From assembly GCA_045531485.1 (NCBI GenBank), contig JAZSEC010000013.1:4510-68509 (forward strand): a stretch of 64,000 bases of DNA, in the 5' to 3' direction. This DNA is from Eubacteriales bacterium (GTDB taxonomy: Bacteria; Bacillota; Clostridia; Oscillospirales; CAG-272). The notes under the pieces are model-generated. The model ran no database searches. It was not told the origin of the DNA and saw only the letters and a list, made by a program, of their open reading frames with translations. This document shows, in pieces, positions 51,529-51,800 of the stretch (position 1 is its first letter; each line of letters opens with the position of its first letter). The position numbers were made by a program, and so were the translations under genes.

Positions 51529-51610
51529 TATATGTTCCTTTCGTGTTTTTTTAAAATAGAATGATGAAAATGGATGTCTTGCGTAATTATTTGCTTCAAG
51601 TTACTTCAAG

Positions 51611-51800
51611 ACAAGCGATCCGATGCAATTCGCAAAATTTTGATGAAGTGCGAGCAACGGTTGTCGCCGGGCGTAGTCACCTACGTCAAATCAAGTAATC
51701 CGATGCGATTCGCAAAATTTTGATGAAGTGCGAGGAACGGTTGTCGCCGGGCGTAGTCACCTACGTCAAGACAAGCGATCCGAAGCAATTCGCAAAATTT
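51611..51800. repeat. 2 x 80-bp tandem units plus a 30-bp partial unit in the groES-groEL spacer
   Basis: Units at 51611-51690 and 51691-51770 (6 mismatches in 80), with a partial unit at 51771-51800. Core gtcgccgggcgtagtcacctacgtcaa. Confidence 0.95.

Follow-up and report, generated by a model that had tools for sequence, protein, structure and literature searches.

Hairpin repeats with a conserved apex behind groES and other genes of uncultured Clostridia

Introduction

Small hairpin-forming intergenic repeats are already known from several groups of bacteria, and the present work concerns what is apparently a further family of them, found in the spacer between groES and groEL on a 64,000-nucleotide stretch of contig JAZSEC010000013.1 from an Eubacteriales bacterium (assembly GCA_045531485.1; the whole stretch is called the window throughout). 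The closest described systems are the repetitive extragenic palindromic (REP) elements, bacterial interspersed mosaic elements (BIMEs) and REPINs of Proteobacteria, which go with RAYT/TnpA_REP transposases of the HUH type. These are extragenic imperfect palindromes that lie behind genes or between cistrons, singly or clustered, and are patchy between strains. REP units measure about 35 nucleotides (nt; range 20-40), start with a 5' GTAG, are species-specific, occur in hundreds of copies and alternate in both orientations within BIMEs. They are recognised strand-specifically as hairpins of single-stranded DNA (ssDNA), and they can stabilise the mRNA upstream or, near a stop codon, hinder translation termination.

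Hairpin-forming intergenic repeats of approximately 100-150 nt are found in enterobacteria and Neisseria (ERIC or IRU, and Correia or NEMIS elements, respectively). They are conserved over their full length, resemble miniature inverted-repeat transposable elements (MITEs) and occur in either orientation; Correia elements are bounded by terminal inverted repeats and duplicate a TA target. The attC sites of integrons are recognised by structure, as a folded bottom strand with a variable apex, R''/R' core sites and extrahelical bases. Mycobacterial interspersed repetitive units (MIRUs) are tandem units of 40-100 bp in operon spacers, in one orientation relative to transcription and with ends that overlap the upstream stop codon, and they carry short open reading frames (ORFs) that couple stop and start codons.

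The family described here differs from the known small hairpin repeats (REP/BIME, ERIC, Correia and MIRU) in its architecture, its stop-codon placement and orientation, the strand that bears its structural signature and its host clade. A further comparison comes from Clostridia themselves: in cellulolytic species, the 3' stem-loops of selective RNA processing and stabilisation (SRPS) are intercistronic hairpins behind the upstream cistron that set transcript stoichiometry (PMC4423207, PMC8219983, PMC10311766).

Results and discussion

Tandem hairpin units in the groES-groEL spacer

The groES gene (51799-52083, - strand) is an ORF of 94 aa with PF00166 homologues of up to 100% identity, and groEL (49903-51528, - strand) is an ORF of 541 aa whose counterparts in syntenic loci are Cpn60. 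By gene coordinates the spacer between them comprises 51529-51798, or 270 nt, and the groES stop codon is a TAA at 51799-51801. A preliminary description of this locus had reported a spacer of that length, expanded by repeats, with a partial unit overlapping the groES stop codon, and both points are borne out. Tandem Repeats Finder places an array of 2.5 copies with a period of 80 nt at 51602-51800 (89% matches, score 328), while a separate repeat search returned two 80-nt copies, 91% identical, together with a partial third copy of 39 nt at 51762-51800. The end of the array shares 2 nt (51799-51800) with the stop codon. The window is apparently an assembly of the metagenome-assembled genome (MAG) type, its closest relatives all being MAG or metagenome contigs, and the copy number of this 200-nt tandem array is therefore less certain than its presence.

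Reading the array in hairpin register refines the earlier count of two units and a partial one to one intact unit, one eroded unit and one half unit. Unit A (51714-51800, + strand; cmsearch 78.5 bits, E = 1e-16) is an intact hairpin with the base helix AAAATTTTG/CAAAATTT, and it is the 3' end of this unit that abuts the groES stop codon and overlaps it by 2 nt. Its apical module (51746-51769, + strand) comprises a GCCG/AA internal loop, a 7-bp stem GGCGTAG/CTACGTC with a G.T(U) wobble, and the tetraloop TCAC. Unit B (51634-51720, + strand) is an eroded tandem copy, 92% identical to unit A, in which the apex (51666-51689) is intact and pairing is lost at the top of the 3' arm; with filters off, its cmsearch score is confined to the apex (31.5 bits at 51661-51694), and its fold has z = -1.8. 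Half unit C (51602-51640, + strand), identified from the repeat search and the sequence, is a remnant of the 3' half of the apex (TACTTCAAG) and the 3' arm, preceded by a 10-nt duplication at 51591-51610. The array ends 73 nt ahead of groEL, which is independently initiated: the non-repeat rest of the spacer (51529-51601, - strand) holds the groEL ribosome-binding site (RBS) GAAAGGA at 51536-51542, before the ATG at 51528.

The core GTCGCCGGGCGTAGTYACCTACGTCAA occurs in six exact copies in the window, all on the + strand, with none expected from 100 shuffles. Two are in the groESL spacer and four in an array of 91-nt period (38855-39208), in agreement with the earlier observation that the spacer and an array at 38.8 kb have a core in common; the closing helices differ between the arrays, as had also been noted (TTGTC/GACAA in the spacer, CTTCTTGGGTC/GACACAAGAAG in the other). 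The second array consists of four units (38855-39213, + strand; Tandem Repeats Finder score 583; cmsearch 74, 68.6, 58.7 and 55.8 bits). It adjoins the stop codon (39214-39216) of a gene for a GDSL-lipase lipoprotein (39214-41244, - strand; assigned by Pfam), in the same orientation relative to the upstream gene as at groES, and lies upstream of a gene for a 1739-aa surface protein. Its outer sequences differ in alternate units, and the true period may be 182 nt.

The third site is a decayed unit of a sister subfamily (49807-49902, + strand; cmsearch 20.5 bits) directly after the groEL stop codon. Its base and lower stem are intact, and its apical stem has been destroyed by a 4-nt deletion relative to the orthologous copy of relatives. 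A covariance-model scan of the 64-kb window found no family copies beyond these three sites. Unlike a CRISPR array, the units follow one another directly, head to tail (periods of 80 and 91 nt), with no unique spacers in between, and the genes downstream of the arrays, groEL and that for the 1739-aa surface protein, do not fit a ToxI-like repeat of a type III toxin-antitoxin system.

A conserved apex on variable, complementary arms

When one genome per species was scanned with the apical 24-mer, 21 loci were found in about 17 MAGs, with one to three exact apices in each species-representative MAG; a metagenome scan with the apex added eight more loci. The MAGs are labelled Eubacteriales, Clostridia or uncultured Ruminococcus, and come mostly from ruminant gut (goat, sheep and roe deer). 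One of the 21 loci (L021; L numbers denote loci outside the window) lies inside a gene of a Chromatiaceae MAG and is a probable chance match. Overall the apex is identical in approximately 25 loci from other genomes, and tandem arrays are present in the window and in L002, L004, L010, L011, L023, L024 and L029.

The flanks of the 24-mer are unrelated between loci, yet they are complementary within each copy, and the copies have the ends AATTTTGA... and ...CAAAATT. Since this mutual complementarity holds in every copy, the unit is an imperfect hairpin, about 87-100 nt long. At its top is an apical module that hardly varies (GCCG / GGCGTAG-N4-CTACGTC / AA, read on the window + strand). The arms below it differ in sequence between units yet keep their complementarity, and the A/T-rich base is semi-conserved (AATTTTG-A...CAAAATT), with one A bulged and one purine facing another in a mismatch. 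Median pairwise identity of the units is 66%, apex and base being the only common parts, and the apical tetraloop varies across loci (TTAC, TCAC, TGAC, AAAC, AAGC, ATAC, TAAT, TTGC and others).

The fold was assessed on an alignment of 20 independent units made by MAFFT from sequence alone. Partners pair in 75.8% of cells, against 35-44% when the partner is slid, and both sides have changed in 28 of 37 pairs; none of 500 shuffles reaches the observed values. A covariance model built from this alignment and run on the fetched loci scores units at 28-92 bits on one strand and never above 25 bits on the other, and it recovers additional, more diverged copies within those loci. Covariation within the apex rests on these diverged copies, found by the model inside loci that had been fetched through the apex pattern; their compensated apical stems include GCGGTAG/CTACCGC, GCTGTAT/ATACAGC and GGCGTAT/ATACGTC, and the orthologous post-groEL copy of a close relative has GCAATAG/CTATTGC in place of GGCGTAG/CTACGTC.

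The elements share with ERIC and Correia repeats their size class, a long imperfect palindrome, transcribed intergenic sites, presence/absence polymorphism and orientation-dependent consequences for mRNA. They differ from these and from MITEs such as RUP in that conservation is confined to apex and base, with covarying arms, and in that the orientation is fixed and a target duplication is not seen.

Searches of existing catalogues returned nothing that corresponds to the repeat. There was no match in viral contigs or phage records, and the one short match in plasmid records (26 nt, E = 0.8) is at chance level. Rfam 15 at gathering thresholds identifies a T-box at 57764-57984 as its only hit in the whole window and none on the repeat, and a permissive Rfam scan of 51400-51950 on both strands (E <= 10) gave four chance-level matches to snoRNA and sau-19 models. 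A literature search by repeat sequence found unrelated primers only, and one on RAYT, REPIN and Firmicutes or Clostridia found nothing pertinent. This repeat family of uncultured gut and rumen Clostridia is apparently undescribed so far.

Three known motifs were also considered for the hairpin. A GNRA tetraloop in the mRNA sense (CGUAG-GNRA-CUACG, with a GURA loop) was ruled out, as the loop varies and the other strand offers the better 7-bp stem GGCGUAG/CUACGUC. A kink-turn or box C/D reading of UGAUGA failed on sequence inspection, the partner strand being without the matching GA. An intrinsic terminator in either direction was rejected because the base is A/U-rich and there is no consistent U-tract across loci; a terminator scan of the spacer on both strands found none, the operon terminator being located at 49747-49772.

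The constrained strand is the complement of the upstream gene's mRNA

Each of the 26 units has its more stable fold on the strand antisense to the upstream gene, with summed energies of -1000 kcal/mol compared with -760 kcal/mol for the sense strand. When the apex is replaced by GAAA, so that the arms only are compared, the difference persists (-492 versus -366 kcal/mol, with 31 versus 8 G-U pairs). When every 5' arm is aligned in a strand-neutral way to the 3' arm of that unit in reverse complement, the transition mismatches divide into 56 that are G.T on the folding (+) strand and 10 that are G.T on the gene-sense one (p = 7e-9); part of the 56 comes from a wobble pair conserved in one subfamily, so that not all are independent, and the excess persists after discounting one per unit. 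A further count of G.U against A.C gives 63 versus 25.

Unit A shows the same polarity. As RNA, its + strand folds at -36.7 kcal/mol (z = -5.09), a value equalled by none of 200 shuffles, while the mRNA-sense strand folds at -26.2 kcal/mol (z = -1.72), and 12 of 200 shuffles do as well; DNA parameters give -21.6 (z = -4.48) and -14.9 (z = -1.67), respectively. On the folding strand the apex has the GCCG/AA internal loop, the stem GGCGUAG/CUACGUC with a conserved G.U that becomes C-G in variants, and the variable tetraloop. Mutational skew (C-to-T change on the non-template or lagging-template strand) would, we reason, enrich G.U on the sense strand. Because such skew would act the opposite way, we take the wobble asymmetry as selection on the complementary strand. 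The structurally constrained strand is the complement of the upstream gene's mRNA. As a point of method, hairpin repeats inside transcripts should not be presumed to act as sense-strand RNA structures.

At one locus (L022, ~1585-1613, oriented) the intrinsic terminator of a convergent gene has a U.G wobble on its transcribed strand, which serves as an internal control for wobble marking the transcribed strand.

Units follow stop codons in one orientation

Of 33 arrays, 28 have on the opposite strand an ORF of at least 80 codons whose stop falls in the interval from -10 to +60 nt around the element's 3' end, in most cases only a few bases away. The mirror arrangement, found in 9 of 33, involves scattered distances and mostly shadow ORFs. 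Units lie 0-25 nt behind the stop codon in constant orientation relative to the gene, and at several loci the TAA is fused to the conserved end (TAA|ATTTTG). In these respects they resemble MIRUs, which are likewise tandem and intercistronic, in one orientation, and overlap the upstream stop codon; they are unlike MIRUs in forming a long hairpin with a conserved apical module, and they belong to a different phylum.

About 13 of 18 loci lie between co-directional genes, and likely operon contexts, judged from upstream C-termini and the sizes and order of neighbours, are groES-groEL, rplL-rpoB, pgk-tpiA, rny-ymdB, yicC-remA and gap. The gene followed by the element encodes RNase Y (rny) at four loci, and L7/L12 (rplL), a YicC-like protein, Pgk, a LivF-like ATPase, an Fe-S protein and a DegT-like aminotransferase at two loci each; groEL is the host in the window and in the loci of four relatives (L034-36 and L040), and a GAPDH-like and a glutamate dehydrogenase-like gene are each host at one.

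Two loci have the look of a punctuated operon, each of two consecutive co-directional genes having its own array (L010, 4106-4304 and 5927-6233; L014, 757-855 and 1485-1584). In L003 the element (2780-2893, - strand) abuts a 37-codon remnant with a C-terminus like that of the DegT-like aminotransferase preceding the element in L015; it seems that the gene was cut short here and the element was retained.

These positions bear on the possibility that the element acts in cis in the mRNA, as a hairpin of the 3' untranslated region or the intercistronic region that serves as a barrier to 3'-5' exonucleases or as a mark for processing and in this way determines how much of the upstream cistron there is relative to the downstream one, as in SRPS, with the conserved apex binding an RNA-binding protein or an RNase. 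The elements occupy transcribed positions, behind stop codons and ahead of terminators (in L022, and at groEL of the window), most of the 18 loci scored are between co-directional genes, several in likely known operons, and orientation is tied to the gene. Furthermore, host genes recur across species with arms that have diverged and are still paired, arrays stand behind each of two consecutive genes in L010 and L014, and 3' stem-loops are known to set transcript stoichiometry in Clostridia (PMC4423207, PMC8219983, PMC10311766). The likeness to SRPS extends to an intercistronic hairpin behind the upstream cistron, here of -26.2 kcal/mol in the sense strand. However, this sense fold of unit A is no better than that of shuffles (z = -1.72), and the wobble is on the wrong strand, sense hairpins having A.C where the other strand has G.U (56 versus 10 and 63 versus 25 in the two counts). 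Sense copies score at most 25 bits with the covariance model, the groES copy is missing from the nearest relatives and hence dispensable, and in L025 an intrinsic terminator stands between the rplL stop codon and the element. SRPS loops, moreover, are locus-specific and mRNA-sense, whereas the present family is repeated with a common apex and constrained on the opposite strand. We therefore regard a cis-acting mRNA element as unlikely, although it is the strongest rival to the reading favoured below.

An RNA element on the other strand would accommodate the polarity directly. One form would be a small cis-antisense RNA whose target is the 3' end of the upstream gene's mRNA; another would be a factor-dependent stop or decay signal that insulates the gene from antisense or convergent transcription. 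G-U pairs, z-scores and covariance-model scores all favour this strand, the 56:10 ratio is typical of RNA, and the fixed orientation and abutment to the stop codon would be natural if the upstream gene is protected or targeted. Against this, there is no promoter-like site on the + strand near the groESL array and no conserved promoter motif upstream of units at other loci, and a consistent U-tract follows the hairpin on neither strand. Tandem and half units also fit a discrete RNA gene poorly, and in L022 the convergent gene's intrinsic terminator ends 3 nt before the element that follows rny, so that antisense transcription should stop before reaching it. An antisense RNA element is accordingly doubtful in our judgement.

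Fixed orientation behind stop codons is also a property of integron attC sites, and a recombination site of that kind would be a bottom-strand hairpin behind genes at which a tyrosine recombinase excises or shuffles cassettes. The elements are like attC in that structure is conserved while sequence varies, the folded strand is complementary to the coding strand, the element begins at or in the stop codon in fixed orientation, sites follow consecutive genes, and there are mismatches and an extrahelical base. The flanked genes, on the other hand, are housekeeping genes in universal operon order (groES-groEL, rplL-rpoB, pgk-tpiA) rather than cassettes. The element ends, (T)AAATTTTG... and ...CAAAATTT in gene sense, are without the AAC/GTT cores in the alignments (no RYYYAAC...GTTRRRY core sites), conservation centres on the apex, which is variable in attC, and not on the base, and no integrase is found beside any locus in the available gene tables. 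An attC-like site is thus highly improbable.

Gain, loss and exchange of units

The preliminary description had proposed a comparison of groESL spacers across related genomes, and this proved informative. In syntenic contigs of near relatives (spoIIAA-spoIIAB-sigF-groES-groEL-aldo/keto reductase) with GroES 95-98% identical to that of the window, the spacer is 18-20 nt long. The whole of it aligns with the RBS-proximal end of the window spacer, and the groEL RBS is kept there too. A fourth relative (L040, MAG JAZNZI01; GroES 97% identical) has a spacer of 124 nt with one homologous unit, which has a variant apex loop and a partly eroded stem, while the window has 270 nt. Because relatives with so similar a GroES manage with 18-20 nt, the expansion is dispensable for groESL function; judging by the aligned spacers, it is a recent, lineage-private insertion and duplication that has since partly eroded.

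The post-groEL site is similarly patchy. The sister-subfamily unit scores 45 bits in L034-36 and 26 bits in L040 (cmsearch), the copies in these relatives having an intact apical stem with three compensated pairs between them. In L030 and L037 the unit is absent, and plain terminators are found instead. Units that are 94% identical occur at non-orthologous sites, behind different genes, in two related genomes (L010:4205-4304 and L023:3663-3762), and at the orthologous Fe-S gene of L010 and L023 a different type of unit abuts the stop codon. Since near-identical units sit behind different genes and the stop-abutting type differs at an orthologous gene, the comparison suggests that new units enter on the stop-codon side. 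With units patchy at groES and groEL, moved between sites and assembled into arrays of differing composition, the family is dynamic: units have evidently come and gone, been duplicated and been exchanged between loci over the time that species take to diverge.

Such turnover raises the question of whether the units are neutral, as decaying selfish DNA or tandem duplications, or whether array length is an artefact of assembly. Unit B and half unit C are eroded, the post-groEL copy has no apical stem, and the assemblies are of the MAG type, all of which would fit. However, many species have the identical 24-nt apex despite divergence at synonymous sites and in the arms, orthologous copies retain their pairing through multiple compensated changes, and independent assemblies have units at the same sites (groES in L040, groEL in L034-36). 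Neutral debris or an assembly artefact is therefore a very improbable explanation.

A REP-like reading and its weak points

The reading that we favour, tentatively and at a little under even chances, is that the spacer holds REP-like strand-specific hairpin repeats read by a conserved factor, with a single-strand logic like that of REP/RAYT or attC. A conserved protein would read the apical module and the helical irregularities on a single-stranded hairpin, which would most simply be ssDNA of the template strand, as for REP/RAYT hairpins or attC bottom strands, and would mediate the spread or maintenance of the units. Copies would survive only where they are harmless, between a stop codon and the next RBS or terminator, and only in the orientation whose mRNA-sense fold is the weaker; the placement and polarity of the elements would in that case show where compact operons can tolerate an insertion.

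Comparison with the REP/BIME elements of enterobacteria, made already in the preliminary description, leads to the right neighbourhood. Like them, the units are extragenic palindromes at gene ends or between cistrons, single or clustered and patchy, and like REP hairpins they are strand-specific, as seen from the wobble ratio of 56:10 and from every unit folding better on one strand. Unlike REP elements, they are 87-100 nt long, and the 5' foot of the palindrome lacks a GTAG, which is confined to the apical stem GGCGTAG. They also appear to be of low copy number and have one orientation relative to the upstream gene, with a cross-genus 24-nt apex on variable arms. This mixture of traits, in which such an apex on covarying arms is combined with placement at stop codons in one orientation and a signature on the non-mRNA strand, marks the family as distinct; we know of no described bacterial repeat family that combines them.

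Several observations weigh against a REP-like element. Covariation alone is no proof of selection on structure, because DNA palindromes can self-correct by template switching; this caution extends to every structural argument made here, whichever reading it serves. Neither a target-site duplication nor a clean junction between empty and filled sites is seen at groES and groEL. No Y1/HUH transposase, RAYT or tyrosine recombinase is found among the genes of the relatives' loci (8-20 kb around the matches) or among the ten window ORFs scanned, and the sole recombinase seen in the window is of the large serine type and belongs to a separate island of low GC content. Copy number looks low, with three sites in the 64-kb window, one to three exact apices per MAG and a single site across some 60 kb of syntenic relatives; REP copies are counted in hundreds. 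The apex is identical across genera, whereas REP sequences are species-specific. On one 278-kb contig L010 and L011 are in opposite orientations, each matching its own gene, and orientation tied in this way to the gene fits a transcription-linked role at least as well as a replication-linked ssDNA mechanism. Finally, the same hosts recur, often in operons in which the upstream gene is needed in excess (rny, rplL, yicC, pgk, livF, groEL), and this suggests a benefit to the host rather than mere tolerance.

Possible, if rather unlikely, is the bolder proposal that the repeats represent a new class of structure-specific single-strand element, with an invariant 24-nt apex read by a conserved protein and placement at stop codons in one orientation. 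It would be either an ssDNA transposition or recombination system that targets gene ends, or a host-maintained insulator against antisense transcription behind highly expressed genes. If a dedicated protein does read the element, it would amount to an undescribed single-strand recognition system in a large branch of uncultured gut Clostridia, and would help to explain how small hairpins, selfish or domesticated, come to settle at safe sites within essential operons.

Consequences for the groESL operon

Apart from its spacer the groESL operon is, to judge from its predicted signals, conventional. A promoter-like site (TTGACT-17-TAAAAT, 52176-52148, - strand) and a perfect CIRCE operator (TTAGCACTC-N9-GAGTGCTAA, 52133-52107, - strand) lie upstream of groES, groEL has its own RBS, and an intrinsic terminator with an 11-bp stem followed by a T run (49747-49772, - strand) is found downstream of the decayed post-groEL unit.

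It had been suggested that the structured repeat could act within the groESL mRNA. Of this, the presence of structured repeats with closing helices of their own holds; action in the mRNA sense is not supported, and the short-spacer relatives, the predominance of wobble on the other strand (56:10) and the weak sense fold (z = -1.72) all speak against it. An effect on translational coupling, also suggested, is not at stake, because groEL keeps its own RBS GAAAGGA here and in the relatives with short spacers. The -26 kcal/mol hairpin right after the groES stop codon, which weaker remnants follow in the transcript, may nevertheless hold up 3'-exonucleases or be a site of processing, and its base would need to be melted by a ribosome that terminates there. 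On this modelling, any effect on decay or processing of the groESL mRNA looks like a secondary one, akin to a side effect.

The long spacer is a recent landing site for repeats rather than a regulatory innovation of the chaperonin operon. For a stoichiometry-sensitive operon, it forms with its relatives a natural series of 18-, 124- and 270-nt spacers in near-identical backgrounds.

Other features of the window

The T-box leader at 57764-57984 (+ strand; Rfam RF00230, 101 bits) runs into an ORF of 922 aa at 57903-60671, which is valyl-tRNA synthetase in syntenic relatives. The segment 1-8000 has a GC content of 33-36%, compared with 47-50% elsewhere, and its genes include the large serine recombinase (4945-6705, + strand), an HTH protein (3051-3701) and a DUF3990 protein (3667-4359); the segment is probably a mobile element that has integrated, with no relation to the hairpin repeats. 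The GC skew profile over the window was uninformative on replication direction.

In-frame tandem repeats of a different kind, within coding sequence, are found in surface or secreted proteins at 40742-41049, 38006-38261, 62664-63018 and 10193-10249. That of the GDSL lipoprotein comprises 4.7 copies of 66 nt and encodes HTHxFVDGKCECGEEDPNYVPP, the 1739-aa protein has 2.2 copies of 114 nt, and the ORF at 62355-63470 has 8.5 copies of 42 nt. A 1258-aa protein encoded at 9900-13676 (+ strand) consists almost entirely of BspA-type leucine-rich repeats (PF13306, E = 1e-214).

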